Source: an uncultured Agathobacter sp.
Lineage (GTDB): Bacteria; Bacillota; Clostridia; Lachnospirales; Lachnospiraceae
Direction of reading: 5' to 3'
Assembly: GCA_944381555.1 (NCBI GenBank)
Contig: CALWLL010000039.1
Coordinates: forward strand, 1,717-65,716
DNA: 64,000 nucleotides
This document shows, piece by piece, positions 37,598-62,938 of the stretch. Within the stretch, counting starts at the first letter, position 1. Each line of letters starts with the position of its first letter. Made by a program: the position numbers and the translations under genes. The notes beneath the pieces are model-generated. The model was not told the origin of the DNA. It was given only the letters and a program-made list of their open reading frames with translations, and ran no database searches.

Positions 37598-37614
37598 TAG
37601 TGTTCCTCCTAATA

Positions 37615-44451: not shown

Positions 44452-44521
44452 GTAATGTAATACTCTGCTTTCGGCAATGCGTATTAACCATTCGCCTGAG
44501 GCGAAAACAGGAGGTGTAACT

Positions 44522-46735: not shown

Positions 46736-47734
46736 ATGAGTACAACTACTAATTTAGAAATCATGGAGAAAATTCTCCAAAAAATAAAAGAATATAACAG
46801 AATCCTGATTTTCCGTCACTTTAGACCGGACGGAGACTGCGTAGGCGCAACAAAAGGATTACAGGAGATTTTACGAATCTCATATCCCGAAAAAGAAATT
46901 CTCCTTGTAAACGAGGACTATGCAAAATACTTAGAATTTCTCGGACCGGAAGACGGCGAAATTCCAGAAGAGAAATTTGCCGATGCACTTGGTATCGCCG
47001 TTGATACCGGAAGCCTGGACCGTCTTTCCAGCAAAAAATTCCCTCTTTGTAAGGAAACCATAAAAATTGACCACCATATTGATAATACGCCATACGGAGA
47101 TTACTCCTGGGTAGAAGATTTTCGTTCTTCTGCCTGTGAAATGATTGTAAAATTCTATGATACTTTCCGTGATGAACTAAAAATCAACGAAAAAGCGGCC
47201 TTTTATCTCTATACCGGCATGGTAACCGATTCCGGCCGTTTCAAATATGAAGATGTATCCGGTGATACACTCCGCCTTGCAGGAATTCTCTTAGATCAGG
47301 GCATCAATACCGAATGGCTTTTTGCAAACCTCTACTTAGACGAATTCAGCCAGTTGAAATTCAAATCTCATGTATATGACAAGATGCAGATTACAGAGCA
47401 CGGGGTTGCTTACATCTACATCGATAAAGCAATGCAGGAGGAATTTCATCTCTCACTAGAGTATGCCAGCACCGCCATTTCCTATATGGATTCCATCAAG
47501 GGCTGCCTTTCCTGGCTGGCATTTATCGAAACCGGAGATGAAGACGGAACCATCCGCGTACGTCTTCGTTCCCGCTTCGCCGCAATCAATACCATTGCAG
47601 AAAAATACCGGGGCGGCGGTCACGCCTTTGCCTGCGGTGCAACCGTTTATAATATGGATGAAATAAACGCTCTTATTGCGGATACAGATGCACTTATCAA
47701 AGACTACAAAGAAACACATGAGGGCTGGCTATAA
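46736..47734 (+). CDS. DHH/DHHA1 phosphoesterase (second NrnA-like paralogue)
   Basis: 332-aa ORF with FRHFRPDGDCVGA, IDHHI and GGGH motifs. Confidence 0.8.
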   Translation: MSTTTNLEIMEKILQKIKEYNRILIFRHFRPDGDCVGATKGLQEILRISYPEKEILLVNEDYAKYLEFLGPEDGEIPEEKFADALGIAVDTGSLDRLSSKKFPLCKETIKIDHHIDNTPYGDYSWVEDFRSSACEMIVKFYDTFRDELKINEKAAFYLYTGMVTDSGRFKYEDVSGDTLRLAGILLDQGINTEWLFANLYLDEFSQLKFKSHVYDKMQITEHGVAYIYIDKAMQEEFHLSLEYASTAISYMDSIKGCLSWLAFIETGDEDGTIRVRLRSRFAAINTIAEKYRGGGHAFACGATVYNMDEINALIADTDALIKDYKETHEGWL

Positions 47735-48462
47735 TGAGAATCTTAATTACAAATGATGACAGCATCTCTTCGCCGGTACTTCTTTCCCTGATTCAATGGG
47801 CGCAAAAGTTTGGCGAGGTAACAACTGTCGTTCCGAAATACGAGCAGAGTGGCAAGAGTCACAGTATTGAACTTCGACATCCTTTTGAAGTAGAAAGAGT
47901 AGAACTCTCGCCCGGAGTTTATGTTTACACTGTCGATTCTGCTCCGGCAGACTGTGTACGGTACGCAGTTCTTGGCTTAGGCATGGAATTCGATTTGATT
48001 ATCTCCGGTATTAATAAAGGGTTAAACATCGGGATTGACACCCTATATTCCGGTACTGCTGCTGCTCTTTTTGAAGCCGGATGCTGTAAAATTCCTGCCA
48101 TTGCTCTCTCTACAAATCCGGAAAGTTTTGAGGATGCGCTTGCACATCTTGATCAGGTATATGATTTCTTTTTGGAACATAAACTTATGGAAAAACACTC
48201 CTTGTATAATGTCAACATTCCGGTTGGAACCAATGGAACGATTCGCATTACAAGACAGGGTGGCAGATATTATTCTGATGACTTCGCCCATGAAGAAGAC
48301 AATATGGTAAGACCGATTGGTAAGTCTGTATTTGAGCCATGTGGCTTGGAAGACGTTGACACAGATGCAGTTTTGCATTACAAATACATCTCTATCTCAC
48401 CAATGACAATCATTCGTACGGATATGAAGGTATTTGAAGCGTTAAAAGAATTGAATAAATAA
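47734..48462 (+). CDS. surE: 5'/3'-nucleotidase SurE
   Basis: MRILITNDDSISSP, INKGLNIG and SGTAAA motifs. Its start overlaps the previous stop (TAATG). Confidence 0.88.
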   Translation: MRILITNDDSISSPVLLSLIQWAQKFGEVTTVVPKYEQSGKSHSIELRHPFEVERVELSPGVYVYTVDSAPADCVRYAVLGLGMEFDLIISGINKGLNIGIDTLYSGTAAALFEAGCCKIPAIALSTNPESFEDALAHLDQVYDFFLEHKLMEKHSLYNVNIPVGTNGTIRITRQGGRYYSDDFAHEEDNMVRPIGKSVFEPCGLEDVDTDAVLHYKYISISPMTIIRTDMKVFEALKELNK

Positions 48463-48542: not shown

Positions 48543-50288
48543 TTAAGCCATTCTTTTCTTGCTTACAACAGCTACTGCTACTAAAGCACATCCTGCGAAA
48601 AGGATTACTGCAACTGGCATTGTCATATCGCCTTTCGCTTCGATTTCTCCGCCTGCTGATGTGTAAGATACAAGGGTAGAACCCTGATTGTACTGTACTT
48701 TTCCATTATAGTTTCCAAATGTACCATTTACTGTAATGGTGTCACCAACTTTCAGTTTATCTACACCTGTTCCGGCTAATCTAAAGCACTGGATTGGTTT
48801 ATCTGTCATACCATCTACAACCATAGTTACGGTGATGTTCTCATACTCTTCACTGTATTCCGTATCGATAGATGTAATAACACCTGTTAATTTATATTCA
48901 CCAATCATTGGCGTGTTATTGTTCATTGCATCATAAGCTGCATTTACAATCTGTTCCGGTGTTGCATCTTCTGGTAATGTATTTTCAAGTTCACCTTTTT
49001 CTACAGCTATAAGTTCAGCGCCTTGATTGTACTGTACTTTTCCATTATAGCTTCCGAATGTACCATTTACTGTAATCGTATCACCGACCTCAAGACCATC
49101 TGCACCTGTTCCAGCTAATCTGTAACACTGGATTGGCTTATCATTCATATTACCAACAACCATTGTTACCGTAATGTTTTCAAACTGTTCGCTATATGGT
49201 GTATCAATCGATGTAATAACACCTGTTAATTTATATTCGCCAATTATCGGAGTTCCATTGTTCATTGCATCATAAGCTGCATTTACAATCTGCTCCGGCG
49301 TTGCATCATCTGGTAATGTGTTTTCAATTTCACCAGCTTTAACTTCTTCAAGTGTTGAACCTTCAACAAACCGTGGCTTACCATCTTTGCTTCCGATTTC
49401 GCCTTTAACTGTAATAATATCACCCACAGAAAGTGCTTCCAGTTTTGCTAATTCAGCCGTATCCTCTTGATTTGCAACTGTCAATCTGTAACATTTTAAT
49501 AACTTATCAGACATATCACCAACCTGAATCGTTACTGTAATATTCTTATAATTAGATGAATATGTTGTATCGATTGACGTAATAACACCCTCTAATGTCC
49601 ATGTACCCTTAAGACTAACACCTTTATCAACTGCTTCATAAGCTGCATTTACAATCTGTTCCGGTGTTGCATTTGCCGGCAGTTCAATATCTTGCGGAAC
49701 TTCTACCGTACCACTGTATTCAAATACCATGAAGTCAAACGTATATTCTTCGTTTGCATTCACAAGATTATATGTAGAATATGGAGCCCATTTATTTGTA
49801 GTACCGCTACGATAGGTAATTGCTCTCTTAGCACCTTCTTCCTCGTCTTTTGTTTTGCCGCTAAAGAATCTGAATAAATCTGTTCCTGCTTCTTCTACAA
49901 TCCACTGGTTTCCATCATCTGTATTATTCGCACCTGTCGCGAAATTAGTAGAGCTTGAATATCCTAAATAGTATGTCCCAACTGCAAGGGAAACGCCTAG
50001 CGTTGTAGATGCAACTGTCCATACCGGGATATTGCTTCCAGATAATGTGTTACCTGTGACAGTAACTTCAACCGGAGAAATTTTGCCACTGGTAACAGTA
50101 TTCATTGCATAATACGTACCGCTATTTTCTACAACGATAACAAAATTTCCTCCCTCTTTAATTGTACTTACCTCAGTGACTCTTGTGTAGGTACCTTCGG
50201 CTTTTGCATCAACTGGTGCAATAACCAAACCACCGACTACCATCAATACTGCAAGAGCAAGTGATAATGCTTTTTTGAAATGTTTCAT
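48543..50288 (-). CDS. secreted, C-terminally membrane-anchored protein with three tandem OB-like modules
   Basis: Signal peptide (..APVDAKA/EG). An N-domain of about 170 aa that I do not recognise. Three repeats of 113-122 aa (PEQIVNAAY...L[TE]GVITSIDT.YS..[YF].NITVT...C[YF]RL...VGD.ITV.G). A C-terminal TM helix plus a KKR tail, with no LPXTG. Confidence 0.7.
   Translation of the reverse strand: MKHFKKALSLALAVLMVVGGLVIAPVDAKAEGTYTRVTEVSTIKEGGNFVIVVENSGTYYAMNTVTSGKISPVEVTVTGNTLSGSNIPVWTVASTTLGVSLAVGTYYLGYSSSTNFATGANNTDDGNQWIVEEAGTDLFRFFSGKTKDEEEGAKRAITYRSGTTNKWAPYSTYNLVNANEEYTFDFMVFEYSGTVEVPQDIELPANATPEQIVNAAYEAVDKGVSLKGTWTLEGVITSIDTTYSSNYKNITVTIQVGDMSDKLLKCYRLTVANQEDTAELAKLEALSVGDIITVKGEIGSKDGKPRFVEGSTLEEVKAGEIENTLPDDATPEQIVNAAYDAMNNGTPIIGEYKLTGVITSIDTPYSEQFENITVTMVVGNMNDKPIQCYRLAGTGADGLEVGDTITVNGTFGSYNGKVQYNQGAELIAVEKGELENTLPEDATPEQIVNAAYDAMNNNTPMIGEYKLTGVITSIDTEYSEEYENITVTMVVDGMTDKPIQCFRLAGTGVDKLKVGDTITVNGTFGNYNGKVQYNQGSTLVSYTSAGGEIEAKGDMTMPVAVILFAGCALVAVAVVSKKRMA
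48632..49676. repeat. intragenic tandem DNA repeat (339- and 366-bp periods)
   Basis: The string TCATAAGCTGCATTTACAATCTG recurs at 48931, 49270 and 49636. Long near-identical stretches join repeats 2 and 3. Confidence 0.85.
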
Positions 50289-50512: not shown

Positions 50513-50941
50513 ATGATTGTATTTATCGCATTAGATGACAACAATGGCATGATGTTTAATAACCGCAGACAAAGCCAGGACCGCATTATTCGTCAGCATA
50601 TGCTGGATGATTGCCGTAATTCCACACTTTGGATAGCCGAATACAGTAAAAAGCTGTTTCTATCCGAAGATGATACATCTTTGCCTGACAATCTGATAGT
50701 GGATGACGACTTTTTAAACAAAGCCGGAATTGACGACTATTGTTTTGTTGAAAATCGTCCTTTAAAAGCATACATAGATAAAATTCATACACTCGTTATT
50801 TTTAAATGGAATCGTATCTATCCTGCTGATTTACACTTTGACTCCTCAATATTAAATAATGGCTGGAATAAAATTTTTACTACAGAATTTGTAGGTTCCT
50901 CACACGATTTAATTACTAAGGAGGTATGGAAACGTGCATAA
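50513..50941 (+). CDS. small cytoplasmic protein, translationally coupled to the nuclease gene (candidate nuclease inhibitor; faint DHFR-like N-terminus)
   Basis: 142-aa ORF with a GGGGAG RBS and no signal peptide. Its stop overlaps the nuclease GTG (GTGCATAA). The N-terminus MIVFIALDDNNGMMFNNRR is reminiscent of a DHFR-fold beta1-loop. Confidence 0.6.
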   Translation: MIVFIALDDNNGMMFNNRRQSQDRIIRQHMLDDCRNSTLWIAEYSKKLFLSEDDTSLPDNLIVDDDFLNKAGIDDYCFVENRPLKAYIDKIHTLVIFKWNRIYPADLHFDSSILNNGWNKIFTTEFVGSSHDLITKEVWKRA

Positions 50942-52274
50942 AATGCAGAAAAAACGGAATATTCTTTTGTCTGCCGGAAAAAAACTTAAGTTGTCTACAC
51001 TTCGTATACTTCTGACAATTATTCTTCTGCTTGTTCCTTTAGCCGCTTGTGGCAACACTAATGATTCGGAAGATACATCATCCGTTTCATCTGAGTCTGA
51101 AACCGAAAGTAAATCACTTTCGGATTCCGAAATCGAACACGAGTCCGAAAGCGATACAAGTTCCAAGACAGAGTCAGAGAGTGATACAACGCCGGAAACG
51201 GAGCCGGAATCTGAGAAAGAACCGGAATCAGAATCCCAAAAGCCGGACGCCGGAAACAAAACGGACAATAGTGACAACAACGATAATACCGGTAATAACG
51301 ATAATACGGATATTAACGACAATACTGGTAATAAGGATAATACTGATAATAACGATAATGCCGGCAATAATGATAATAATGGCAACACCGGTAATAACGA
51401 TAACACCAGTAATAACGATAATAATGGTGATACAGGCAGTCAGAATGGCGGAAGCAATACCAGCAAAGATTTAAATACTCCGGGGATTTCCCTTTCCGAT
51501 ATTCCGGCATATTCTAAGGATTATTATATTGTATTAAACAATAATACTCCTCACTTTGCCACAGATAATCTGGCTGCGGATTGCTATGAATTTTATAGCC
51601 CTCTCGATTCTCTTGGCAGATGCGGCGTAGCATATGCCTGCCTCGGTACAGACCTTTTACCTACCGAAGATCGCGGAAGCATTAGCAGCGTAAAGCCAAG
51701 CGGATGGCATTCGACCTCATATTCCTGCGTACCGGGTGGCTCGCTCTACAACCGCAGTCACCTGATTGCATTTTCTCTGGCTGGAGAAAATGCAAATGAG
51801 AGCAATCTTATTTCAGGTACACAGCACTTGAATCAGATTGAAATGCAGAAATTTGAAAACTTAGTTCTGGATTATATCAAAGAAACCGGAAACCATGTTC
51901 TTTACAGAGTTACTCCTTTCTTTGAAGGAAATAACTTAATTGCAACCGGCGTACAGATGGAAGGCTGGTCTATTGAGGATAATGGTGAAGACATCTGCTT
52001 TAACGTGTTCATCTATAATGTGCAGGATGGCATCTCCATTGACTATGCTACCGGTGCAAGCTACGAAACAAATCCGGGCGACGATACTACGAGTGATGTT
52101 CCGGAAGATGCCTTGTATGTAGTAAATGGTAACAATGGAAAAATCCACAAGATTACTTGTGGTAATGCAAAGGGATTATCAAAACCTATTTATTGCAGAA
52201 CATTAGAAGAAGCCGAGGCAGAATCTGCCAAATTAGAAGGCTCTGCACAATATGCAGGCTGCTGTATGAAATAA
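50934..52274 (+). CDS. NucA/EndA-type non-specific DNA/RNA endonuclease lipoprotein (DNA-entry-nuclease family)
   Basis: GTG start 9 nt after AAGGAGG. Lipobox PLAAC. A low-complexity linker of about 120 aa. The C-terminal domain has LDSLGRCGVAYACLG, SSVKPSGWH, YNRSHLIAFSLAGENANESNLISGTQHLNQ and VLYRVTPFFEGNNLIATGVQMEGWSIED. Confidence 0.75.
   Translation: MHKMQKKRNILLSAGKKLKLSTLRILLTIILLLVPLAACGNTNDSEDTSSVSSESETESKSLSDSEIEHESESDTSSKTESESDTTPETEPESEKEPESESQKPDAGNKTDNSDNNDNTGNNDNTDINDNTGNKDNTDNNDNAGNNDNNGNTGNNDNTSNNDNNGDTGSQNGGSNTSKDLNTPGISLSDIPAYSKDYYIVLNNNTPHFATDNLAADCYEFYSPLDSLGRCGVAYACLGTDLLPTEDRGSISSVKPSGWHSTSYSCVPGGSLYNRSHLIAFSLAGENANESNLISGTQHLNQIEMQKFENLVLDYIKETGNHVLYRVTPFFEGNNLIATGVQMEGWSIEDNGEDICFNVFIYNVQDGISIDYATGASYETNPGDDTTSDVPEDALYVVNGNNGKIHKITCGNAKGLSKPIYCRTLEEAEAESAKLEGSAQYAGCCMK
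51060..51440 (+). repeat. low-complexity coding repeat (SE/TE-rich, then DN-rich)
   Basis: Encodes SESETESKSLSDSEIEHESESD...TEPESEKEPESES, then (N/D)NDNTGNNDNT-type iterations. The DNA is built from GATAAT/AACGAT units. Confidence 0.85.
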
Positions 52275-52642: not shown

Positions 52643-52674
52643 AAAAAGACTGCCAGCCACAACTATGGCTGGCA
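52642..52674 (-). terminator. terminator after the OB-repeat lipoprotein gene (end of the ABC-nuclease operon)
   Basis: Stem GCCAGCC/GGCTGGC with an 8-nt loop, followed by CTTTTT on the minus strand. Confidence 0.65.
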
Positions 52675-52743
52675 ATCTAATATTAAATCTGTCTTTACAA
52701 TCTTTCTTGTTTTACAGCAATCTCTATTACTATGTACTTTAAA

Positions 52744-54519
52744 TTATTCTGTTACCAACTGACATCCTGAATTAAATTCAATCGTTCCCTTATAGTTAAT
52801 GATTGTACCTGTAACCTTGATAGTATCACCAACTTTAATTGTATCAGCGCCATCGCCCTTCAAACGGTAACACATAATTGGTTTATCAGCCAAATCACCA
52901 ATCTGAATCGTAACAGTTACGTTCTTATACTGGTCGCTATATTCCGTATCTACGCTAGTGATAACACCTTCTAATGTTACATCTCCCTTAAGGGCTGCAC
53001 CTTCAGATAATGTATAAGCAAGATTTACAATATCTGCCTGAGAAGCGCCAGAAGGAACCTCAAGGTCTTTTGAAGCCTCACCATATTCTAAAATCTCATC
53101 TAAATTACATCCTGAATCAAATTCGATAGTTCCGTTATAGTTTTTAATAGCTCCTGTAACTTTAATTTTAGCACCTTCCGTAATTTCAGCCGCTTTACCT
53201 CCTGATAAACGATAGCACTCAATTAAATTGTCTTTCAAGTCACCAACCTGAATAACAACTGTTATGTTCTTATATTGTTCACTATAACGCTCTTTAACCT
53301 TTGTAACAACACCGGTTAATGTCCATGTCTTATCTTTGCTTCCGCCAAGATAAGCACCTGCTTTCAGCTCATAAGCCGCTTTAACAATTTCTTCCGGTGT
53401 GGAAGGCGTTGTGTCTACTGGTTCACTGCTTTGCGTCTCAGATGATGGTTCCTCAGATGATGGTTCTTCACCTGAACCGCCTGTTGTATAAGCATCCAGT
53501 GTACATCCTGCATCAAATTCGATTGTACCCTTATAGTTCTTAAGAATACCGGTTACTGTGATTGTGTCACCAACTTTAACGGTGTCTGCACCCTCACCTT
53601 TCATACAGTAGCACATAATCGGCTTATCCGCTTTATCACCAACCTGAATGGTTACGGTTACGTTCTGATACTCGTCACTGTATTCTGTGTCAACAGATGT
53701 GATAACACCTGTTAATGTCTGGTTGTCAGTAAGCTGTGTGCCGGATTCCAATGTATAAGCAATATCAACGATTTCTGCCATTGTTGCGCCCGCAGGAACT
53801 GTTGGAATTGTAACTTCCGGTGCATCTCCGACAACTACATTGTCAAGTGTACATCCTGCGTCAAATTCAATTGTACCGTTGTAATTCATTAATGTACCTG
53901 TAACGGTAATAGTATCACCAACTTTGATAGTGCTTGCAGCAGTAACGCCTTCGCCATCTTTCAAGCGGAAACACATAATTGGCTTATCTTTTAAATCACC
54001 TATCTGAATGGTTACGGTTACGTTCTTATACTCGTCACTATATGGAGTATCTACGCTTACAATAACACCTTCTAAGGTATATGTGCCCTCTAAGGAGGCA
54101 CCTGATTCTAATGCATAAGCATCATTTACGATTGATTCATAGCCTTCAAATTTTGGTACAGTGTACTTAAATTCTTTTTTCACACTGTTTCCGTCTGCAT
54201 CTTTAACAGTCGCTGTTAAAACATATGCAACTTCTTCTGCGCTCTTTTCATCTACATTAATAGTTGCAATTTTATCCTCAACAGTTACGGTAACTGCTTC
54301 GTTGTCAGTTGTCCATTCAACTGTATACGCAGTGTTATCAATCATAACCTGCGTTACACGCTCATAGTCTTTCGCTGTTACAACACCTGCGTCTTTATAC
54401 ATTGCGTATACATAATCCGCAGCGGCCTGAAGGTCTTCGCTTACCTTTTCTCCGCCACATCCCGCAAGAGTTGATACACACATTAAAGTAACAAGTAAAT
54501 ATGCAATAATTTTTTTCAT
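52744..54519 (-). CDS. lipoprotein with four tandem OB-like modules
   Basis: Lipobox TLAGC. An N-domain of about 100 aa. Four repeats of 110-125 aa (AY.L..G..L....TL.GVITSVDTEYS..Y.NVTVTIQ[IV]GD..DKPIMC[YF]R[LM]...VGDTI.VTG....Y.GTIEF..GC.L). Confidence 0.7.
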   Translation of the reverse strand: MKKIIAYLLVTLMCVSTLAGCGGEKVSEDLQAAADYVYAMYKDAGVVTAKDYERVTQVMIDNTAYTVEWTTDNEAVTVTVEDKIATINVDEKSAEEVAYVLTATVKDADGNSVKKEFKYTVPKFEGYESIVNDAYALESGASLEGTYTLEGVIVSVDTPYSDEYKNVTVTIQIGDLKDKPIMCFRLKDGEGVTAASTIKVGDTITVTGTLMNYNGTIEFDAGCTLDNVVVGDAPEVTIPTVPAGATMAEIVDIAYTLESGTQLTDNQTLTGVITSVDTEYSDEYQNVTVTIQVGDKADKPIMCYCMKGEGADTVKVGDTITVTGILKNYKGTIEFDAGCTLDAYTTGGSGEEPSSEEPSSETQSSEPVDTTPSTPEEIVKAAYELKAGAYLGGSKDKTWTLTGVVTKVKERYSEQYKNITVVIQVGDLKDNLIECYRLSGGKAAEITEGAKIKVTGAIKNYNGTIEFDSGCNLDEILEYGEASKDLEVPSGASQADIVNLAYTLSEGAALKGDVTLEGVITSVDTEYSDQYKNVTVTIQIGDLADKPIMCYRLKGDGADTIKVGDTIKVTGTIINYKGTIEFNSGCQLVTE

Positions 54520-54537
54520 AGTGAGTTCCCTCTTTAA

Positions 54538-55884
54538 TTATTTAACAATAATATTGTTCGCTGAAAATACTTTAATCTGGTAATCACCGCTAAAGTAATC
54601 TACGATTCCCTTCACGTCAATCGTTTTGCCCATGTAAGCATCCTCTGTGATTAAGCTGCCATTATCATCATAAAGTACACCGGTACGTACCGATACGGTT
54701 AATCCGTCAACTTCACAAGTCAATGTCATAGCACCTTTTGAAGAACTTTCTTCATTTGTTGTGGTATATACATCAACTACCTTAAGATTTTCCATGGAAA
54801 TCGTTGTACCAAGAGCAAGCTCTGCATACTCAAAGGTCTGCTTCTCTTCCCCAACCAATACATCAACAGTACCATTTAAGAATGTATCTGCATCCGTCAG
54901 GACATACGCAGCCTCATTTCCAGTACTTAATTCCTGAATATTGCCCGGATCATCCGGTTTCATGATACGATAGGATACATCTGCAATCTGCCATGTTCCG
55001 CCTGTTTCATAGTACTGTAAGGAACCAACAATGCGAACCTCATTACCAATACTTAAAATCTCAAGACCTTTTCCAGACAGGTTAAAGCCATAGTAAATTG
55101 CAAATCCGTAGTACATATCTGTTTCCGGATCGTATTCCTCTACATATACGCTATTATTTCCATTATTGGTTGTAACAATACCATTAAAAGCAACTTTCAT
55201 ACCATTATAGGCATCTGTATTTGTTCGTAACTCTTTTAATGTGAGTTCAACTGTATCTCCATAATAGAAATCCGGATCCTTTTCACCGGAATTGATATTG
55301 AGTTTCTGTTCTTTTGCCTGATTGATAGCATTAATGCATACGCTGCCATAGCTGTTATTGGCAGAATTGCTTGCAATTGCAAGTCCTTCCTGAAGAATCT
55401 CAATATTTAAGTTCCTGTATTCTTCTGAATCTGCTGTTTTGTACCACACCCATACAAGATATCTGTCACCTGTTGAATCCGCATTCCAATTTGCATCATC
55501 CGACTCAATAACGATTGATGTTGCGCTTTCTAACTTCTCTCTGGTAAATCTGGAAGCCTTCTTACCCCATTCTTCAATCTTTCCTGTAGATTCAGGCGTA
55601 TTGATTCCGAGGTATCTTGCTTTTAAAACACCAGTTGAGATTACGCTGGTAGGCACATTAAAATGTGTTGTGTCGCCATCTACGAAAGTTTTAACTGTTG
55701 CTTCTGTCTTTGCGGTTGAAGATGACATATCCAGTTTTACGGAAGCCGCATAATCTACAATTTCTTTATTTGACTCCGAACCGGTTTCAGATTCCGAACT
55801 ATCAGGGTTATTAGTGCCGCTACAACCACCCAGAAGGGTGATTGTCAGGCACAGCATTAAAATAATTGATAATTTTTTCAACAT
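54538..55884 (-). CDS. thermonuclease (SNase-fold) lipoprotein with two C-terminal OB-like domains
   Basis: ATG at 55884 (MLKKLSIIL...LLGGC lipobox), 1 nt after the SBP stop. SNase motifs are VDGDTTHF, ARYLGINTPES, GDRYLVWVW and NIEILQEGLA. The C-terminal half has two YhcR-type OB-like segments. Confidence 0.8.
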   Translation of the reverse strand: MLKKLSIILMLCLTITLLGGCSGTNNPDSSESETGSESNKEIVDYAASVKLDMSSSTAKTEATVKTFVDGDTTHFNVPTSVISTGVLKARYLGINTPESTGKIEEWGKKASRFTREKLESATSIVIESDDANWNADSTGDRYLVWVWYKTADSEEYRNLNIEILQEGLAIASNSANNSYGSVCINAINQAKEQKLNINSGEKDPDFYYGDTVELTLKELRTNTDAYNGMKVAFNGIVTTNNGNNSVYVEEYDPETDMYYGFAIYYGFNLSGKGLEILSIGNEVRIVGSLQYYETGGTWQIADVSYRIMKPDDPGNIQELSTGNEAAYVLTDADTFLNGTVDVLVGEEKQTFEYAELALGTTISMENLKVVDVYTTTNEESSSKGAMTLTCEVDGLTVSVRTGVLYDDNGSLITEDAYMGKTIDVKGIVDYFSGDYQIKVFSANNIIVK

Positions 55885-55885
55885 A

Positions 55886-57304
55886 TTATTCATTGTATTC
55901 ACATTCGTCAATTGCATCTGCAAACGCTTCCTTAATCAAAGCGTCTACGTCTGATGTTTCTGCTGATAAACATTTGGTTAATAAAGCTCCCACTTCATCA
56001 CGAGCGGTTGAAGAACCGTTAAATGCAGGGGATGTATAGTATGCTTCTTCCTGTTCCATACAGATTTTTGCAGAAAGCGCTGCGATATTATCTCCGCCGT
56101 CTGCGCTGTCTAAGAATGCTTTATAGCCTTCATGCTCTGCTACTGACTTCAGTACTGGAACATATCCGGATGCTGATGAAAATTCTGCCTGGAAGTCTAC
56201 ATTAGTTGTTAAGAATTTTACAAATAACCAGGAAGCAATTACCTCCTGTGGATTTTCCTTCTGGAAAATACACAAGCTTGGTCCCTGGGAAATTACTTTT
56301 GGATTTTCCGGATCCGCCTGTGGGATTGTAGCAATACCTACTTCAAATGGATAATTTCCATCTTCACCTTTGGCTGGACGCTGGTGTGTAGCACCTGCGG
56401 AGGAACCGATTGACATATAGCTTGTTGCGCTTGACGGATCAGAGTTTGTGAAAAGACCTGATGTATAAGCGCCGTAAAGTGTCTGTGTTGTTAAAAGACC
56501 AGACTGATACCATTCTCTGAATTCTTTTACGAATGCATGATTTTCTTCATTATCAAAGAGGTAGTGATCGCCTGTTGCGCTTGTATAATCTGTACCAAGC
56601 TGTTCGCACATTGTAATGAACCAGTTTGCCTCACTATCGTATCCAAGCGGAATAGATGTTGGATCGATTTCTTTGATTTTCTTACATAATGCTTCTAATT
56701 CATCCCAGGTTTTTGGAACTGATAAATTGTTTTCTTCAAAGAATGTCTTATTGTAGTAAAGAACCTCTGTTGATTTTGACAATGGCAATGTGTACATTAA
56801 GTCATCACCAAACTCTTTACCTTCGTTGTAATAACCTGCGATAAAGTCATCAATCTGCTCCTTGGTAAGACCAAGTGTTTCAGTTGTTCCGTCAGCTCTT
56901 GTTACAACCTCTTCACTTGCGATTAAGTTATCCAGTGTAACTACTGCTTTAGAGATGTTGTACATAGCAACGTGGTCCGGATAACAATAAGCAATATTCG
57001 GCTGAGCGCCGGTTGTAATCTGGGTTGCAATCTGTTCACGAACATCATCATAGCTGCCTACCTGTTCGTGTACGATATGAATATTTGGATAAAGCTTATT
57101 GAACTCTGCAATATAAAGGTCAAGTACGTCTCTTAAGTTCTGACCCATTGTATGATAGAAAGTAATCGTTACTTCACTTCCATCATAGCCGCCTTCCGGA
57201 ACATCGAAGTTCGCTGTTGCATTTCCTGATCCTGTGCCACAGCCTGCAAGCATGCTAACTGCCATTACAAGCACCAGGAGCATAGATAAAATACGTTTTT
57301 TCAT
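55886..57304 (-). CDS. ABC transporter solute-binding lipoprotein (family 1, sugar/CUT1 type)
   Basis: 472-aa ORF with lipobox MLAGC. Its overall character matches family-1 extracellular SBPs. Confidence 0.8.
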   Translation of the reverse strand: MKKRILSMLLVLVMAVSMLAGCGTGSGNATANFDVPEGGYDGSEVTITFYHTMGQNLRDVLDLYIAEFNKLYPNIHIVHEQVGSYDDVREQIATQITTGAQPNIAYCYPDHVAMYNISKAVVTLDNLIASEEVVTRADGTTETLGLTKEQIDDFIAGYYNEGKEFGDDLMYTLPLSKSTEVLYYNKTFFEENNLSVPKTWDELEALCKKIKEIDPTSIPLGYDSEANWFITMCEQLGTDYTSATGDHYLFDNEENHAFVKEFREWYQSGLLTTQTLYGAYTSGLFTNSDPSSATSYMSIGSSAGATHQRPAKGEDGNYPFEVGIATIPQADPENPKVISQGPSLCIFQKENPQEVIASWLFVKFLTTNVDFQAEFSSASGYVPVLKSVAEHEGYKAFLDSADGGDNIAALSAKICMEQEEAYYTSPAFNGSSTARDEVGALLTKCLSAETSDVDALIKEAFADAIDECEYNE

Positions 57305-57372
57305 CTCTTTTTTTCCTCCCTCATAAAATAAAGTAAGATGATATATGTTACAGGCATATAAAATTCTGCCTA

Positions 57373-58269
57373 TTAACCCTTAATACCGCTTCGGCTTACG
57401 CCTGCCATAATGTATTTTCTCAAGAAGATAAATACAAGGAATAATGGAGCGGATACGATAGCTACAGCCGCCATCTGTACAGGATAGTTTACGTCACCTG
57501 TGGTTTCCGTGAAGGCATTACGAAGACCGTTTGTTATCAGACGGTGTTCTGCATCATTTGCAACTAATCTTGGCCAGATGTAAGAGTTCCATGCACCCAT
57601 CATCTTTAAGATAGTGATAGAAATCAACGTCGGCAAGGCAAGCGGAATCATAACTTTACACAGATATTTAATATCACTTGTACCATCTACTTTAGCAGCA
57701 AGGTATAGTTCATTTGGAATCTGCATAAAATTCTGTTTCAGAAGATAAATGTAAAACACACTCACAAGGAACGGAACAATAAGTACCGTAAACGTATTCA
57801 GCCATCCGAGCTGCGTTACCGTCTGGTAATTTGTAATTGTGAAAAGTTCACCCGGAATCATCATTGTTGCAAGCATTAAGCCGAATAGAGTTTCTTTTCC
57901 TTTGAACTCAAGTCTTGCAAATGCAAAAGCACAAAGAATTGTGATAACCAATGATAACAGCGTTGATACGAGTCCAACATATAAGGTATTCAAAAATAAG
58001 CGGCCAAGATTGGCTGTGGTAAACGCTTCTACATAATTGCTGAGCATAATCTTCTGCGGCCAGAAGGTTGGAACGCTCATACGATATTCTTCCAATGTTT
58101 TTACAGAAGAGATGAGCATCCAGTAAAATGGAAAAAGCACGATAAGCGCCATAACAAGCAGGAATGCATATACGCCGACTTTAACCAGCGCTTGAACAAC
58201 CTTCTGCTGTGCAGACACCTTCTGCATGTCTTTTTCACGCATAACGATATTTTTTTTACTTGTTGTCAT
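57373..58269 (-). CDS. ABC transporter permease (MalG/UgpE-like)
   Basis: 298-aa polytopic ORF with an EAA-type loop (LYLAAKVDGTSDIKYLCKVMIPLALP). Confidence 0.85.
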   Translation of the reverse strand: MTTSKKNIVMREKDMQKVSAQQKVVQALVKVGVYAFLLVMALIVLFPFYWMLISSVKTLEEYRMSVPTFWPQKIMLSNYVEAFTTANLGRLFLNTLYVGLVSTLLSLVITILCAFAFARLEFKGKETLFGLMLATMMIPGELFTITNYQTVTQLGWLNTFTVLIVPFLVSVFYIYLLKQNFMQIPNELYLAAKVDGTSDIKYLCKVMIPLALPTLISITILKMMGAWNSYIWPRLVANDAEHRLITNGLRNAFTETTGDVNYPVQMAAVAIVSAPLFLVFIFLRKYIMAGVSRSGIKG

Positions 58270-58281
58270 ACTGCACCCCTC

Positions 58282-59226
58282 TTAATAATAAACACTCTTT
58301 TTACCAAATCTCATGTTCAGTCTTGTAACAATCAAAATAATTACGAATAGAATCAATGCCGCTGCACTGGCACGTCCCTGATGCTTATTTTCTAAGGCTT
58401 CATAAACGAAACCTACCATTGTGTTCAGGCGTCCCGGAGCATCCGGCGGTCCCATAGTTTCTCCGAAAATACCTACGATACTGGTATATTCTTTAAATCC
58501 GCCGATAAAGCCTGTGATAATTACATAAGCAAGCATTGGCGAAAGAAGCGGCACAGTGATGCGTGCAAATACACGGCTTCGTGAGGTGCCGTCTACTTTT
58601 GCCGCATCATAATACTGGGCGTTGATTGACTGCAAACCGCCAAGCAATACGAGAATCTTGAATGGTAATGCATTCCATACGATATACACAACCATTACCG
58701 TAATGTTTGCCCAATACTGCGAACCTGCGTTAATCCAGTTGACTCTTTCCCCGCCGAAAAATTCAATCACGTTATTGATAATACCGGCAGTCTGTATAAT
58801 CTCGTTCTCCGTGCCATGAAAACTACCTACAATGTTGAACATTGCCGCAAAAACCATACCGATTGCAATAGAGTTTGTTACATATGGCAGGAAGAAGATT
58901 GTCTGTAAAATTTTTTGCAGACCTTTGATAGAATTCAAAGCTACTGCAATGAGCAATGCTAAAAGTGTGGATATCGGCACAGTCAACACACAAAGCAGGA
59001 TGGTGTTCTGCATACACTGTAAGAATTTCTTGTATTCGATAACCTTAAGGAAATTACCGATACCAAATTCAAATGTCGCACCGCCAACTTCTGCCTGCGC
59101 ACTATAGCCTTCCAGAAAAGCCATACGCAGAGTGTTAATGATTGGCCATACAGTAAACACCAGCAACAGAATGATTGCAGGTGATAAGTAGAGCCACGCT
59201 TTCCACTGTTGTTTGTTATCTACCAT
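58282..59226 (-). CDS. ABC transporter permease (MalF/UgpA-like)
   Basis: 314-aa polytopic ORF with an EAA loop (YYDAAKVDGTSRSRVFARITVPLLSP). Confidence 0.85.
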   Translation of the reverse strand: MVDNKQQWKAWLYLSPAIILLLVFTVWPIINTLRMAFLEGYSAQAEVGGATFEFGIGNFLKVIEYKKFLQCMQNTILLCVLTVPISTLLALLIAVALNSIKGLQKILQTIFFLPYVTNSIAIGMVFAAMFNIVGSFHGTENEIIQTAGIINNVIEFFGGERVNWINAGSQYWANITVMVVYIVWNALPFKILVLLGGLQSINAQYYDAAKVDGTSRSRVFARITVPLLSPMLAYVIITGFIGGFKEYTSIVGIFGETMGPPDAPGRLNTMVGFVYEALENKHQGRASAAALILFVIILIVTRLNMRFGKKSVYY

Positions 59227-59227
59227 A

Positions 59228-60331
59228 TTACTTCACCTCGAAATAAATTCTCTCTTCTGTCTCTTTGTTGAAAACGAACATCTTGTGTGGTTTAATAGAG
59301 TATCTGACTGTTTCGCTTTCTGTGTTTACTTTGTTATCTGAGTTAATGATAGAACGGATTACAGGGTTAAGAGAAGCCGCATTCGTAGATACTACGCTTA
59401 CGTCACGCCCCATAACTTCTACGTTCTCTAATTTACAATGGAACGGTCCGTTCTCGTCAAGGTTAAATCCTTCCGGACGGATACCAATGATTACATCCTG
59501 ATCAGCAGCATCTTTTACCTCCATCACAGCATCTTCACCGATATAAACCTTTCCACCTTTAATCTTTCCATCGAAAACGTTAATCGGTGGTGTTCCGAGG
59601 AATTTTGCAACAAAAAGGTTTACCGGATTATCATATACCTCCTGTGGTTTTCCAATCTGCTGAACAACACCAAGCTTCATAACTACGATTAAGTCAGAAA
59701 TGGACATTGCTTCTTCCTGATCATGTGTTACAAATACGGTTGTGATACCTGTTTCTTTCTGGATTCTTCTGATTTCTTCACGGGTCTGCAAACGGAGTCT
59801 CGCATCAAGGTTAGAAAGAGGCTCGTCCAAAAGAAGGATACGCGGCATTTTAACGAGTGCTCTGGCAATCGCAACACGCTGCTGCTGTCCGCCGGAAAGC
59901 TCATTTGGTTTGCGGTCCATAAGTTCATCGATTTGAACTAATTTTGCCGCATAATACGCTCTTTCCAACATTTCCTCCTTGCTCATTTTCTCTTCGCCCT
60001 TTAAGTTCTGCAGTGGAAATAAAATGTTCTGCTTAACTGTCATGTGCGGATAAAGGGCATAGTTCTGGAACACAAGACCTATACCTCTCTTTTCGGTGGC
60101 AAGTTCTGTCACATCGTCATCTCCGAAATAAATTTTACCGCTAGTTGGCTTCTGCAAACCACTGAGCATATAAAGTGTGGTACTTTTTCCGCAGCCGGAT
60201 GGTCCAAGCAAACCAATTAATTTACCATCTGGAATCTCAAAGTTAAAGTTATTTACTGCAATAACTTCTTCGTTTGATTTTTTGTTACGGCTTGGGAAGA
60301 TTTTTGTTAAATTCTCTAATACAACTTTCAT
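59228..60331 (-). CDS. ABC transporter ATP-binding protein (MalK/UgpC/MsmX type)
   Basis: The ATG at 60331 gives MKVVLENLTKIF. Walker A is GPSGCGKST, the signature is LSGGQQQR and Walker B is LLLDEP. It has a C-terminal TOBE-like domain. The ORF-track start at 60376 over-extends. Confidence 0.9.
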   Translation of the reverse strand: MKVVLENLTKIFPSRNKKSNEEVIAVNNFNFEIPDGKLIGLLGPSGCGKSTTLYMLSGLQKPTSGKIYFGDDDVTELATEKRGIGLVFQNYALYPHMTVKQNILFPLQNLKGEEKMSKEEMLERAYYAAKLVQIDELMDRKPNELSGGQQQRVAIARALVKMPRILLLDEPLSNLDARLRLQTREEIRRIQKETGITTVFVTHDQEEAMSISDLIVVMKLGVVQQIGKPQEVYDNPVNLFVAKFLGTPPINVFDGKIKGGKVYIGEDAVMEVKDAADQDVIIGIRPEGFNLDENGPFHCKLENVEVMGRDVSVVSTNAASLNPVIRSIINSDNKVNTESETVRYSIKPHKMFVFNKETEERIYFEVK

Positions 60332-60375
60332 ACTTCTCCCTTTCGTATATATTATTTTTTGTACTAGTTGCTGCA

Positions 60376-61137
60376 CTAATATGCCTGATGTGCCGCCTGT
60401 TCTGCATGCATCTTCTCTTTGTATGCAATCAGGTCTGCTTCGCTGTCAAAAATCATCTGGCTTGCCAAATCAACGACAACCGTTTTCGCAAGAACATCAT
60501 GTATCATAGAGTTAGTATTTGTTGCTATCAATAAAATAACCTGCACCAGCAGAATCAAGCCAATAATTATAGGACCAGCAATTCCAATAGCATTAAAAAA
60601 TATCATCATAAGGATTATTACCGGAATCATGGTCTCAATAGTAAATTTTCCGAGAACAGTACGGATGAACATAAGCGGTCCTACTACTTTAATTCCATCC
60701 GTTCGCATTACTCCAAGTCCGAAAATCTTCTTTCCGAGAGTTTGTCCATTACCCAGAATGTTTGGAATCACGAACTCCAAAATGATAAATGCAAGCAATA
60801 TACTTAATGTTGCAATCAAAATCGACAAATTAAATACCATATTATATGCATAGACAGCTTCCTTGTCTGCGATAAGCGCATCATAGGCAGCATCCCAGTT
60901 GGCCCTATCCTCTTCTGACATGCTTTCATATTCCTCGTATGTGATTTCAAACGCAATGCCATACTGCTTCTCATATTTATCGTATGCAGCATTCATATCG
61001 TTGTTATATTTGTCATATCCTAGAACAGATGACAAAAACGTTGCCAGACCAACAACTACAATTCCTAAAATAATGAAGTCAAAAAGAAACGCAGACGCTC
61101 TTTTCCACATGCTTGCTTTCTGTAAATCGTATACCAT
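60376..61137 (-). CDS. RDD-family membrane protein
   Basis: 253-aa ORF. WKRASAFLFDFIILGIV is an RDD-type N-terminal segment. It has several TM helices. First gene of the operon. Confidence 0.65.
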   Translation of the reverse strand: MVYDLQKASMWKRASAFLFDFIILGIVVVGLATFLSSVLGYDKYNNDMNAAYDKYEKQYGIAFEITYEEYESMSEEDRANWDAAYDALIADKEAVYAYNMVFNLSILIATLSILLAFIILEFVIPNILGNGQTLGKKIFGLGVMRTDGIKVVGPLMFIRTVLGKFTIETMIPVIILMMIFFNAIGIAGPIIIGLILLVQVILLIATNTNSMIHDVLAKTVVVDLASQMIFDSEADLIAYKEKMHAEQAAHQAY

Positions 61138-61213
61138 TTATTCTTTCCTGTTTATGTTTCTATAAATCACTATTTTCTTACGCTCTTTAAAAAAGCGCAT
61201 TTTACCACAAGGT

Positions 61214-61242
61214 AGTATAACACATTTTTTTGCAAATTCCAA
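61214..61242 (-). promoter_or_regulatory. sigma-A promoter of the RDD-ABC-nuclease-OB operon
   Basis: Minus strand reads TTGGAA-17 nt-TATACT with an extended -10 TG. Confidence 0.55.
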
Positions 61243-61357: not shown

Positions 61358-62938
61358 TTATATATTTAATAAATCGCTGTATGCCTGAAGCGCTCCATCG
61401 GTTTCATGAGCAAGCACGCGGGTTGCTAATACTTTACCAAGCTGTACGCCCTCCTGGTCAAAACTGTTGACATTCCATACAAATCCCTGGAACATAACCT
61501 TGTTTTCAAAGTGTGCAAGAAGTACGCCAAGCGTCTTTGGATTTAACTGCTCCCCAATGATGATGCTTGATGGCCGTCCGCCTTCAAAGTTCTTGTTGCG
61601 GTTTTCATCCGCTTTTCCACATGCAAATGCTACAATCTGTGCGACAACATTCGCACAAAGCTTTTGCTGGCTTGTGCTGCCTTTAATCACAACATCTTTC
61701 TCCATCTGGTTGCTCTTAAATCCAACAAACTGAAGCGGTATGATGTCTGTTCCCTGATGAAGCAACTGATAGAAGGAATGCTGTCCGTTTGTTCCCGGTT
61801 CTCCAAAGATTACAGGACCTGTCACATAGTTTACAGGTTCTCCGAAACGATTTACGGATTTTCCGTTTGATTCCATATCCAACTGCTGCAAGTGGGCCGG
61901 GAAACGGCTAAGCGCCTGTGAATACGGAAGAACTGCCGTATTCTGATATCCCAGTATGTTGCGTTCATAAACACCAATAAGTGCATCTAACATGGCAGGG
62001 TTCTTTTGAATATCAGCGTTTGTCGCTGTTTTGTCAGCTTCTGCCGCGCCATCCAAAAACTGTGCAAATACATCCGGTCCAAATGCAAGGGATAGTACTG
62101 CCCCTCCAACCGCTGATGTGGAGGAGTAACGTCCGCCGATATAATCATCCATAAAGAATGCTGCCAAATAATCCTTGCTCTTTGCAAGCGGAGATGTTTC
62201 GCTGGTAACAGCAATCATATGTTTTGCAGGATCTAATCCGGCATTTTTCAACGCATCTTTCACAAAGGATTCATTTGTTAATGTTTCAAGCGTTGTACCT
62301 GATTTTGATACAAGCACGAAAATGGAGTGCGCCGCATCAATTGTACTTAAAACGCCCGCTGCATCATCCGGGTCTACGTTACTGATGAATTTTGCTTCCA
62401 TTTTTAAGGTGTGATTCACTTTTGCCCAGTTTTCGAGTGCTAGATACATAGCTCTAGGTCCTAAATCACTGCCGCCGATACCAATCTGAACAACCGTAGT
62501 AAATTTCTCTCCTGCTGCGTTGGTGATTTCTCCGTTATGTACTTTGTTTGCAAATTCGGCTATTTTCTTCTGCTCACCTACATAGAAAGTACGTTTATCA
62601 ACACCATCTGCTGTAACCGCTTTCCCTAACTGTCCACGAGTCATATGGTGGAGTACCAGACGCTTTTCTCCAGTATTTATAACTTCCCCATTATAGAGAG
62701 ACGCAAACTTCTCTACAAGCTGCGTTTCTTCTGCCAATTTTGCAAGAACTTCCAGCATGGTATCATCTACCTGCTTTGCCGCATAATTATACGCAAGTCC
62801 TTCTGCCATCGGAACGCTGTATTTTCTGACACGGTCTGCGCCGTTTTCTCCAGCCAGCACCTCTGCAAGATTAACTTTCGCAGCTTTTTGGAGTTCCCCG
62901 TATGCCTTAACAGTATCTAAATTATTCCAGGTGATCAT
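61358..62938 (-). CDS. pgi: glucose-6-phosphate isomerase
   Basis: 526-aa ORF with IGIGGSDLGP, SKSGTTLET and PGI-type C-terminal motifs. AAGGAGG RBS. Confidence 0.93.
   Translation of the reverse strand: MITWNNLDTVKAYGELQKAAKVNLAEVLAGENGADRVRKYSVPMAEGLAYNYAAKQVDDTMLEVLAKLAEETQLVEKFASLYNGEVINTGEKRLVLHHMTRGQLGKAVTADGVDKRTFYVGEQKKIAEFANKVHNGEITNAAGEKFTTVVQIGIGGSDLGPRAMYLALENWAKVNHTLKMEAKFISNVDPDDAAGVLSTIDAAHSIFVLVSKSGTTLETLTNESFVKDALKNAGLDPAKHMIAVTSETSPLAKSKDYLAAFFMDDYIGGRYSSTSAVGGAVLSLAFGPDVFAQFLDGAAEADKTATNADIQKNPAMLDALIGVYERNILGYQNTAVLPYSQALSRFPAHLQQLDMESNGKSVNRFGEPVNYVTGPVIFGEPGTNGQHSFYQLLHQGTDIIPLQFVGFKSNQMEKDVVIKGSTSQQKLCANVVAQIVAFACGKADENRNKNFEGGRPSSIIIGEQLNPKTLGVLLAHFENKVMFQGFVWNVNSFDQEGVQLGKVLATRVLAHETDGALQAYSDLLNI

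Follow-up and report, generated by a model that had tools for sequence, protein, structure and literature searches.

The window analysed here, a 64,000-nucleotide (nt) stretch of contig CALWLL010000039.1 (assembly GCA_944381555.1, an uncultured Agathobacter sp.; positions 1,717 to 65,716), carries on its minus strand a seven-gene operon that probably encodes a cell-surface nucleic-acid harvesting system, in which capture, cleavage, import and cytoplasmic processing would be combined in one unit. Its genes specify an RDD-family membrane protein, an ATPase and two permeases of an ATP-binding cassette (ABC) importer, a solute-binding protein (SBP), an SNase-fold nuclease and a protein built from OB-like modules, the last three being predicted lipoproteins (Table 1). 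We are more confident still that the importer takes up the products of the linked nuclease, whereas the arguments for and against a cargo that is still phosphorylated appear to us about evenly balanced. A preliminary description of this DNA had proposed capture, cleavage and import by one operon, and that reading gains support from three lines of genomic and modelling evidence: the conserved linkage of the genes, fusion proteins, and the closest solved relative of the SBP. All refuting tests open to computation favoured it. The same description had spoken of a Clostridium-type genome; the host is better described as a Lachnospiraceae-like member of the gut or rumen Clostridia than as Clostridium proper.

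Conservation was assessed by a scan over a collection in which each species is represented by one genome; an alignment of SBP homologues served as the seed, and at least 572 stretches were found to encode an SBP relative. The genome-locus counts given below refer to the best 80 loci of these stretches, each from a different species, to which a further 80 loci from metagenomes, many of them human gut, were added to give 160 related loci. The SBPs of the 80 genome loci share 67–82% identity with the window SBP. Wherever the contig extends, the order RDD-ATPase-permease-permease-SBP-SNase-OB is kept in all 160 loci. The SNase gene immediately follows the SBP gene in 79 of the 80 genome loci, the contig of the remaining one stopping at that point, and in every metagenome locus whose contig runs past the SBP; thus, the conserved linkage that the preliminary description had wished to see confirmed by a neighbourhood survey is present. 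An RDD homologue lies directly before the ATPase gene in 67 of the 80 (in the others, the contig ends first or the match is sub-threshold), and we regard the RDD membrane protein as a conserved accessory part. OB modules that match a profile of the window modules occur in 95 of the 160 loci, at 1–8 per locus and mostly three. The metagenome scan was seeded with distant members of the SBP family (32–39% identity to the window SBP) and recovered the main clade again, and the exact window SBP sequence is present on 15 metagenome contigs.

Among the 80 genome loci, the operon is found in Lachnospiraceae, Oscillospiraceae, Christensenellaceae, other Clostridia and some Spirochaetales bins. The Spirochaetales bins (L068, L071, L075 and L080) contain the whole operon, with SBPs about 70% identical to that of the window, and this suggests, on sequence grounds, that the operon moved horizontally into diderm Spirochaetes. 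Firmicutes SBPs keep the lipobox Cys, whereas those of the Spirochaetales have a plain signal peptide without it, as would be expected because the protein should be periplasmic after transfer into a diderm. In L080, NrnA and SurE genes are found downstream as well. Another locus, L014, is labelled Sphaerochaetaceae and is almost collinear with L003 (Eubacterium sp. CAG:841); it may be a mis-binned contig.

Fusions of the operon's products were sought among 1.84 billion cluster representatives, of which 481 SBP clusters matched with E < 1e-30. Two predicted metagenome proteins stand out. P0153, a lipoprotein of 993 residues, contains the SBP and an SNase domain in a single chain, and P0143, of 904 residues, contains the SBP followed by the N-domain of the OB protein and three OB modules, again in a single chain. 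Provided that these fusions are real, they speak for the receptor, the nuclease and the capture array being coupled both physically and functionally. Taken with the conserved gene order, they indicate that the SBP-SNase-transporter linkage exceeds chance.

The SBP itself points in the same direction. By sequence, its nearest Protein Data Bank (PDB) entries are the 7C0x/7C0F series (E 1e-18 by phmmer and 3e-20 by profile), ahead of E. coli UgpB. This series describes a CUT1 SBP of Thermus thermophilus with bound uridylyl-3'-5'-phospho-guanosine (UpG) (Chandravanshi, Samanta and Kanaujia, FEBS J 2021, as cited in PMC12718374). For structural comparison, an AlphaFold2 model was built from 69 diverse homologues and reached a predicted local distance difference test score (pLDDT) of 95.5 and a predicted template-modelling (TM) score of 0.90; an earlier model from 15 close homologues reached a pLDDT of only 53 and was unusable. 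When the model was searched against the PDB with Foldseek, ranks 1–25 were all occupied by the Thermus protein (E 3e-25, target-normalised TM 0.81–0.83, 21% identity), under the entry title ‘dinucleotide-binding protein of ABC transporter endogenously bound to uridylyl-3'-5'-phospho-guanosine’. A cyclic maltosyl-maltose binder came next (E 3e-22), and then the UgpB proteins of M. tuberculosis and E. coli. Hence, by sequence and by fold, the closest solved relative of the SBP binds a dinucleotide; an oligosaccharide binder in this place, which would have told against the preliminary description, was not what emerged. That description had also considered a nucleic-acid ligand non-standard for a CUT1 SBP; the Thermus protein crystallised with UpG provides a precedent.

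The eight pocket residues of the Thermus SBP, taken from the mutants named in the PDB entry titles, were mapped onto the window SBP by sequence alignment and not by superposed coordinates. Three are identical (Thermus Y56, S127 and Q274, corresponding to Y85, S178 and Q340), three are conservatively replaced (F79, N81 and T240 by Y108, D110 and S301), and two are changed: Y224 corresponds to L284, with F285 adjacent, and Y246 to H307, a position occupied by Tyr in most of the wider family. The six kept positions are conserved in 55–63 of the 69 SBP family members, down to 32% identity, the exceptions being L284 (Leu in 40 of the 69) and H307. Tyr and Ser residues that coordinate phosphate are common to binders of UgpB type, of glycerophosphocholine (GPC) and of UpG, and are absent in glucose binders (PMC12718374). 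The kept positions include these Tyr/Ser phosphate binders of the UgpB/GPC/UpG group, and Y85, S178, S301 and Y381 (the last in a GYVPV motif) are conserved in 56–63 of the 69, as in the phosphate-binding branch.

UgpB is the top-scoring named family for the window SBP and is matched by 60 of the 69 family members; nevertheless, the score against the UgpB NCBIfam model NF008211 is 63.6 bits, far from the cut-off of 411. The UgpB glycerol clamp appears to be missing, since alignment to E. coli UgpB places A226 at W169, P109 at E66 and F229 at W172, and the A226 position is A, S or D across the SBP family. The E. coli sequence used has Trp at both 169 and 172 (mature numbering), and it scores 45.6 bits in phmmer, the same as the PDB hit. 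With the phosphate-binding residues kept and the clamp apparently lost, the SBP resembles proteins that bind a phosphoester or phosphodiester other than glycerol-3-phosphate, compatible with a nucleotide or a short oligonucleotide. We thus regard it as a candidate receptor, from the UgpB/dinucleotide-binding branch, for a phosphodiester-containing nucleic-acid fragment.

The remaining transporter components agree with a CUT1-type importer (TC 3.A.1.1), which comprises a family-1 SBP, two MalF/G-type permeases and a MalK/UgpC-type ATPase with a regulatory domain, all found here. The ATPase matches the UgpC subfamily (E 5.5e-104), the first permease has MalF and UgpA as its top NCBIfam matches, and the second matches UgpE (E 2.9e-29); all of these matches are below the NCBIfam cut-offs. 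The RDD protein scores 49.7 bits against PF06271, for which the cut-off is 24.1.

In the nuclease, the SNase domain scores 44.1 bits (cut-off 21), and D21, R35, T41, E43 and R87 (S. aureus numbering) do not vary among 77 SNase orthologues. The catalytic core thus appears intact, with a single unusual substitution, at the Ca2+ ligand D40, and this clade may depart from the classical SNase in metal dependence or activity. About 250 C-terminal residues have no significant family match. The idea that they form two more OB folds found no support, as Pfam gave tRNA_anti_2 only at E 0.22 and hhalign against the module profile a probability of 5%.

The OB protein of the operon consists of an N-terminal domain of about 100 residues followed by four tandem modules of about 105 residues each, predicted to combine a helix with an OB fold. 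Summed over the four repeats, its PF01336 score is 47 bits (cut-off 27), and the protein weakly matches the ExeM/NucH model (E 1.9e-4). It is a candidate nucleic-acid capture array.

That the seven genes form a single transcription unit was inferred from gaps of 1–68 nt and one strong terminator. In operon order the gaps measure 44, 1, 12, 68, 1 and 18 nt, and a direct read of the SBP/SNase junction gives TAAtATG, the SNase ATG lying 1 nt past the SBP stop; gene coordinates, gaps and junction all reproduce what had been described before, and Pfam agrees with the earlier family assignments of all seven genes. For the ATPase, the ATG start was used, although the mechanical open reading frame (ORF) reaches a GTG at 60376. 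The lipoboxes earlier noted on the SBP, the nuclease and the OB protein were found as MLAGC, LLGGC and LAGC, respectively, each at the end of a lipoprotein signal peptide. The closing hairpin with its T-tract was likewise recovered and is by far the strongest minus-strand terminator-like site of the region; no strong terminator was detected inside the operon by the scan of the region, the internal matches being short stems within coding sequence. The promoter proposed upstream is a different matter. The site is indeed present where it had been placed, but such matches are frequent in the region (55 observed against 42 expected from shuffles), and it is weak evidence alone because only its position counts, in a 220-nt gap behind the terminator of the upstream glucose-6-phosphate isomerase gene (pgi, 61358-62938, minus strand), which has a terminator of its own. 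An Rfam search of 40000-64000 gave no riboswitch or leader RNA.

Table 1. Predicted features of the operon and of its neighbourhood (window coordinates)
Feature	Coordinates	Strand	Evidence
RDD-family membrane protein, 253 aa, first operon gene	60376-61137	minus	PF06271 E 5.9e-13
MalK/UgpC-type ABC ATPase	59228-60331	minus	ABC_tran E 1.8e-37; C-terminal regulatory OB_MalK E 3.9e-6
MalF/UgpA-type permease	58282-59226	minus	BPD_transp_1 E 5e-17
MalG/UgpE-type permease	57373-58269	minus	BPD_transp_1 E 5e-18
Family-1 (CUT1) solute-binding lipoprotein (SBP)	55886-57304	minus	SBP_bac_8 E 1.3e-36; SBP_bac_8/1
SNase-fold nuclease lipoprotein	54538-55884	minus	PF00565 E 3e-11, aa 89-197
OB-array lipoprotein, four modules	52744-54519	minus	PF01336 E 2.4e-12, whole protein
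Sigma-70-type promoter-like site TTGGAA-17-(TG)TATACT	61214-61242	minus	9/12 matches + upstream TG
Intrinsic terminator closing the operon	52647-52678	minus	14-pair stem, 7 G-C pairs, then TTTTTGT
Second OB-repeat surface protein, accessory	48543-50288	minus	Three modules by module profile; signal peptide
HD dGTPase-like phosphohydrolase	44477-45745	plus	NCBIfam dGTPase E 5e-57
Two NrnA-like DHH nanoRNases	45757-46704, 46736-47734	plus	NCBIfam NrnA E 2e-73, 2e-69
SurE 5'/3'-nucleotidase	47734-48462	plus	NCBIfam SurE E 1e-43
Second surface nuclease, lipoprotein, DNA/RNA non-specific endonuclease domain	50934-52274	plus	Endonuclea_NS_2 E 1.7e-20

The only sizeable internal gap, between the second permease and the SBP (57305-57372, minus strand, 68 nt), contains a short hairpin, GGCAGAATTTTATATGCC, followed by a strong GGAGG ribosome-binding site. 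The hairpin may be an mRNA-stabilising or processing element that boosts SBP expression.

The case is strengthened by nearby genes that the preliminary description had not mentioned; they encode an additional nuclease and OB protein, two NrnA proteins, SurE and a phosphohydrolase of the HD type. Among the 56 related loci with at least 4 kb downstream of the operon, the flank contains NrnA in 37, SurE in 31 and HD in 19. The products of SNase enzymes are mono-, di- and short oligonucleotides with a 3'-phosphate; NrnA breaks down very short oligonucleotides and strips the 3'-phosphate from pAp, while SurE dephosphorylates 3'- and 5'-nucleotides. The neighbour set would therefore fit an importer of phosphorylated SNase products. 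The Endonuclea_NS_2 nuclease was found again in just one related locus (L077) and is considered accessory, outside the core, because it recurs only once. As for the second OB protein, an N-terminal domain of about 170 residues without family assignment precedes three OB modules that can be aligned with those of the operon protein.

Putting these components together, the following sequence of events can be envisaged. The three lipoproteins (SBP, SNase and OB array) would sit on the outer face of the membrane, where the OB array would retain extracellular DNA or RNA and the SNase, to judge from its intact catalytic core, would cleave it. The SBP would then take a small product bearing a phosphate or phosphodiester, most likely, from the conservation of the pocket, a di- or short oligonucleotide or a 3'-nucleotide, and hand it over to the MalFGK-type importer. 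In the cytoplasm, NrnA, SurE and the HD phosphohydrolase, whose conserved adjacency suggests this role, would reduce the cargo to nucleotides, nucleosides and phosphate. In its fullest form, the proposal is of an ABC importer dedicated to intact phosphorylated di- or oligonucleotides. A tethered nuclease and an OB ‘fishing line’ would supply these fragments, and NrnA, SurE and HD would complete their breakdown; the RDD protein would be a new accessory subunit, and the whole a free-living counterpart, possibly ancestral, of the Mollicutes operon described below. We advance this form only tentatively, with somewhat less assurance than the phosphorylated cargo itself.

The concept has been published before, as precedents from Mollicutes, Izemoplasmatales and Thermus make clear. 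In M. agalactiae, the genes for MAG_5030 (P80), MAG_5040 (an active SNase) and the ABC components MAG_5050-5070 are co-transcribed, P80 is predicted by 3D modelling to be a sugar-type SBP, and in the authors' model the transporter receives nucleotide precursors from the nuclease while P80 does the binding (PMC3585158). The P80 homologue of M. gallisepticum, MslA, binds DNA, and the M. bovis version has been named a putative nucleotide transporter operon (PMC4045577). Thus, the preliminary description was correct in stating that SNase lipoproteins lie beside UgpC/A/E-like ABC genes in Mollicutes (PMC3585158, PMC12115388). A complete model of binding, cleavage and import, with a sugar-type SBP lipoprotein, has been published for this group (PMC3585158, PMC4045577), which makes the system less new than it had seemed.

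We compared the window with the operons of M. agalactiae (MAG_5030-5070), M. bovis (MBOVPG45_0307-0311) and M. gallisepticum (MslA and MGA_0676), and with the SNase lipoproteins of M. genitalium (MG_186), M. pneumoniae (MPN133) and M. hyopneumoniae (mhp379). What the Mollicutes operon has in common with that of the window is an SNase lipoprotein, an SBP-like lipoprotein of sugar type (PBP-II), an ATPase of UgpC/MalK type and a pair of permeases. It differs in that the SBP and nuclease genes come first, whereas in the window they stand behind the transporter genes; the SBP is about 700–730 residues long (P80/P81/MslA), compared with a canonical 472 in the window; and the hosts are nucleotide-auxotrophic parasites instead of free-living or commensal Clostridia. 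Neither an OB-array lipoprotein nor an RDD protein has been reported for Mollicutes, and what is new relative to the Mollicutes kind is accordingly the OB array, the RDD gene and the extension to gut Clostridia. Against NF045826 (‘P68 family surface lipoprotein’), which is probably a Mollicutes family, the window SBP gives a sub-threshold match (E 2.6e-9 over residues 2-187), as do 30 of the 69 SBP family members (best E 1.2e-16).

The Thermus SBP belongs to the same UgpB-related CUT1 branch and has the SKS..LYYNK, SAG and GYVPV motifs in common with the window protein, which is about 60 residues longer. UpG was bound endogenously to the Thermus protein, the physiological role of which is unsettled, and we know of no nuclease linked to its gene.

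The ‘DNA-degradation loci’ of Izemoplasmatales contain a thermonuclease, further nucleases, phosphohydrolases and ABC transporters, and one member in culture can degrade DNA and use it for growth (PMC8289736, PMC8397711). The best matches to the SBP of this transporter in other genomes likewise adjoin nucleases (Wasmund 2021, PMC8289736; Zheng 2021, PMC8397711), and the nuclease-linked transporters were described as ‘probable nucleoside or nucleobase transporters’ (Wasmund et al., PMC8289736). Extracellular nucleases, proteins with DNA-binding domains, 3'-5' nucleases, phosphohydrolases and ABC transporters are clustered there as they are here, but the Izemoplasmatales loci are bigger and less uniform; several nucleases occur in them, as do a phosphate ABC transporter and a 1,049-residue nuclease with a lamin-tail domain.

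Two further systems share parts of the architecture. In B. subtilis YhcR and in nucleases of the ExeM/NucH type, PF01336-type OB folds and a nuclease meet at the cell surface, as is predicted for the window; in those enzymes they are fused and wall-anchored or secreted, whereas in the window they are separate lipoproteins within a transporter operon. YhcR also has a 5'-nucleotidase domain, and no dedicated ABC importer is known to be linked to the YhcR/ExeM-NucH type. The YhcR-type architecture is not found in the proteins of the window operon, where the OB array and SNase are separate and neither a 5'-nucleotidase domain nor an LPXTG motif occurs. With UgpB-UgpAEC of E. coli and M. tuberculosis, the operon shares the transporter architecture, the Ugp proteins as top named families and the phosphate-binding Tyr/Ser; it differs in that the W169/E66 clamp is lost and the scores lie far under the cut-offs, and UgpB systems have no nuclease or OB partners. 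Our literature search found no paper on the Clostridial operon, its OB-array lipoprotein, its RDD gene or its linkage to NrnA/SurE.

A number of observations weigh against the harvesting model. Transcription, lipidation, nuclease activity, DNA binding and the ligand are all deduced from the genome. The SBP is only 21% identical to the Thermus protein, whose lead in the Foldseek ranking is modest (E 3e-25, compared with 3e-22 for the cyclic-maltooligosaccharide binder and 3e-20 for the UgpBs, with similar TM scores), and two of the eight pocket positions (those of Y224 and Y246) are altered. In the nuclease, 66 of the 77 orthologues, the window protein included, have Asn in place of the Ca2+ ligand D40, and 11 have Asp. 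The OB assignment depends on a summed Pfam score, one module alone giving 20.9 bits (E 3.6e-4), below the cut-off, and a profile of seven OB modules searched against the PDB matched only fatty-acid-binding proteins, which are spurious hits. The NrnA-SurE neighbourhood could be inherited gene order instead of functional coupling. In the literature, dephosphorylation is generally accepted to precede the uptake of nucleotides, and membranes are stated not to pass them (PMC8289736). The mutant of the M. pneumoniae SNase lipoprotein MPN133 grows worse on glycerol (PMC4766277), so that the ligand of the Mollicutes system is itself unsettled.

These points leave room for other explanations. Nucleic acid might be harvested and yet enter unphosphorylated, as nucleoside, nucleobase or (deoxy)ribose, following extracellular dephosphorylation, in which case the SBP would be a nucleoside or sugar receptor. 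The sugar-type CUT1 family of the SBP and transporter would suit such a cargo, as would the reading of the Izemoplasmatales transporters as nucleoside or nucleobase importers and the impermeability of membranes to nucleotides (PMC8289736). We nevertheless consider it unlikely, because no extracellular nucleotidase or phosphatase is encoded in the operon or conserved beside it in the 160 related loci, the phosphate-binding Tyr/Ser set of the SBP is conserved, and cytoplasmic nanoRNases with a 5'/3'-nucleotidase next door would be pointless. Moreover, the nucleoside ABC importers known so far rely on SBPs of another family (PnrA/Bmp type), and a PnrA/P48-type nucleoside receptor was set aside as a model for the window SBP on the same ground (PMC12892991). 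The loss of the W169/E66 clamp to A226/P109 (judged against the E. coli UgpB sequence described above), the low NCBIfam score (63.6 against 411 bits), the SBP-SNase and SBP-OB fusions, which favour direct functional coupling, and a linkage that is invariant in 160 loci all speak against another possibility, that of a UgpB-like importer of non-nucleic phosphodiesters, such as glycerophosphodiesters or teichoic-acid fragments, with the nuclease and OB protein merely co-regulated in phosphate scavenging. That possibility draws on UgpB being the top named family (60 of 69 members), on the M. tuberculosis and E. coli UgpBs being close structural neighbours of the SBP model, on the phosphate-binding residues held in common with UgpB (PMC12718374) and on the glycerol defect of the MPN133 mutant (PMC4766277); on balance, it seems to us rather less probable than an unphosphorylated cargo.

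It is very improbable, in our view, that the nuclease and OB protein serve the remodelling of extracellular DNA in biofilms, defence against foreign DNA or competence processing, with the adjacency of a sugar importer being incidental. Although surface nucleases play such roles in other bacteria, as is generally known, and promoter-like matches do exist inside the operon, the adjacency is invariant across families and after the apparent transfer into Spirochaetes, the SNase start is just 1 nt from the SBP stop, the predicted proteins P0153 and P0143 fuse the products, and a strong internal terminator is lacking. Uptake of whole DNA by competence was rejected outright, as the locus is without ComEC/ComEA-type genes and polymers are too large a cargo for a CUT1 importer. 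Harvesting of nucleic acid by the combined lipoproteins and importer is thus the explanation that we prefer.

The system described here is unsurprising in concept, yet it is a widespread form, so far uncharacterised and open to experiment, of a known system type. For the cargo of nuclease-linked ABC importers, no ligand has been defined and no transport shown since the Mollicutes operons were described; as the SBP is of canonical size, well modelled and strongly conserved (64–82% identity across bacterial families), the ligand question is directly testable. The wide occurrence noted above, in at least 572 stretches of the one-genome-per-species collection and on many contigs from human-gut and ruminant metagenomes, adds to its interest. 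Were the harvesting model true, the dominant gut Clostridia would routinely feed on extracellular DNA and RNA. In the fullest form of the proposal, many abundant members would import nucleic-acid fragments without prior extracellular dephosphorylation, and such uptake of phosphorylated fragments would call for a revision of the common view that dephosphorylation must come before nucleotide import.

Several side observations concern the proteins above. Many SBP relatives among the cluster representatives, P0121 being one, bear N-terminal extensions of 100–900 residues. They include Cys-rich CxxC-type repeats in P0153, a 660-residue region without Pfam match in P0126, BspA leucine-rich repeats flanking the SBP domain on both sides in P0149, and Listeria-Bacteroides repeats in P0193. 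These extensions look like additional surface-display or tethering modules. The second OB protein of the window ends in a hydrophobic segment and basic tail without an LPXTG motif, and is predicted to be anchored otherwise than the OB lipoprotein of the operon; its modules are without the second conserved Cys present in those of the operon protein.

In the second nuclease, an acidic, Asn-rich linker of about 150 residues (Ser, Asp, Glu and Asn, with NNDNTGN-like repeats; about 51050-51500) separates the lipobox from the catalytic domain, behind which lies a Cys-containing tail of about 60 residues. The repeats of the linker generate long spurious ORFs in other frames and strands. A 142-residue ORF (50513-50941, plus strand) ends 8 nt inside the start of this nuclease gene; it has no Pfam, NCBIfam or PHROGs match and no homologue was seen in the 160 related loci. 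From its position, it is possibly a nuclease inhibitor or immunity protein. Farther off in the window, flagellar genes, including one for a FlgK-like hook-associated protein, are present (35873-38127, minus strand), and the host is therefore a motile, Lachnospiraceae-like organism.

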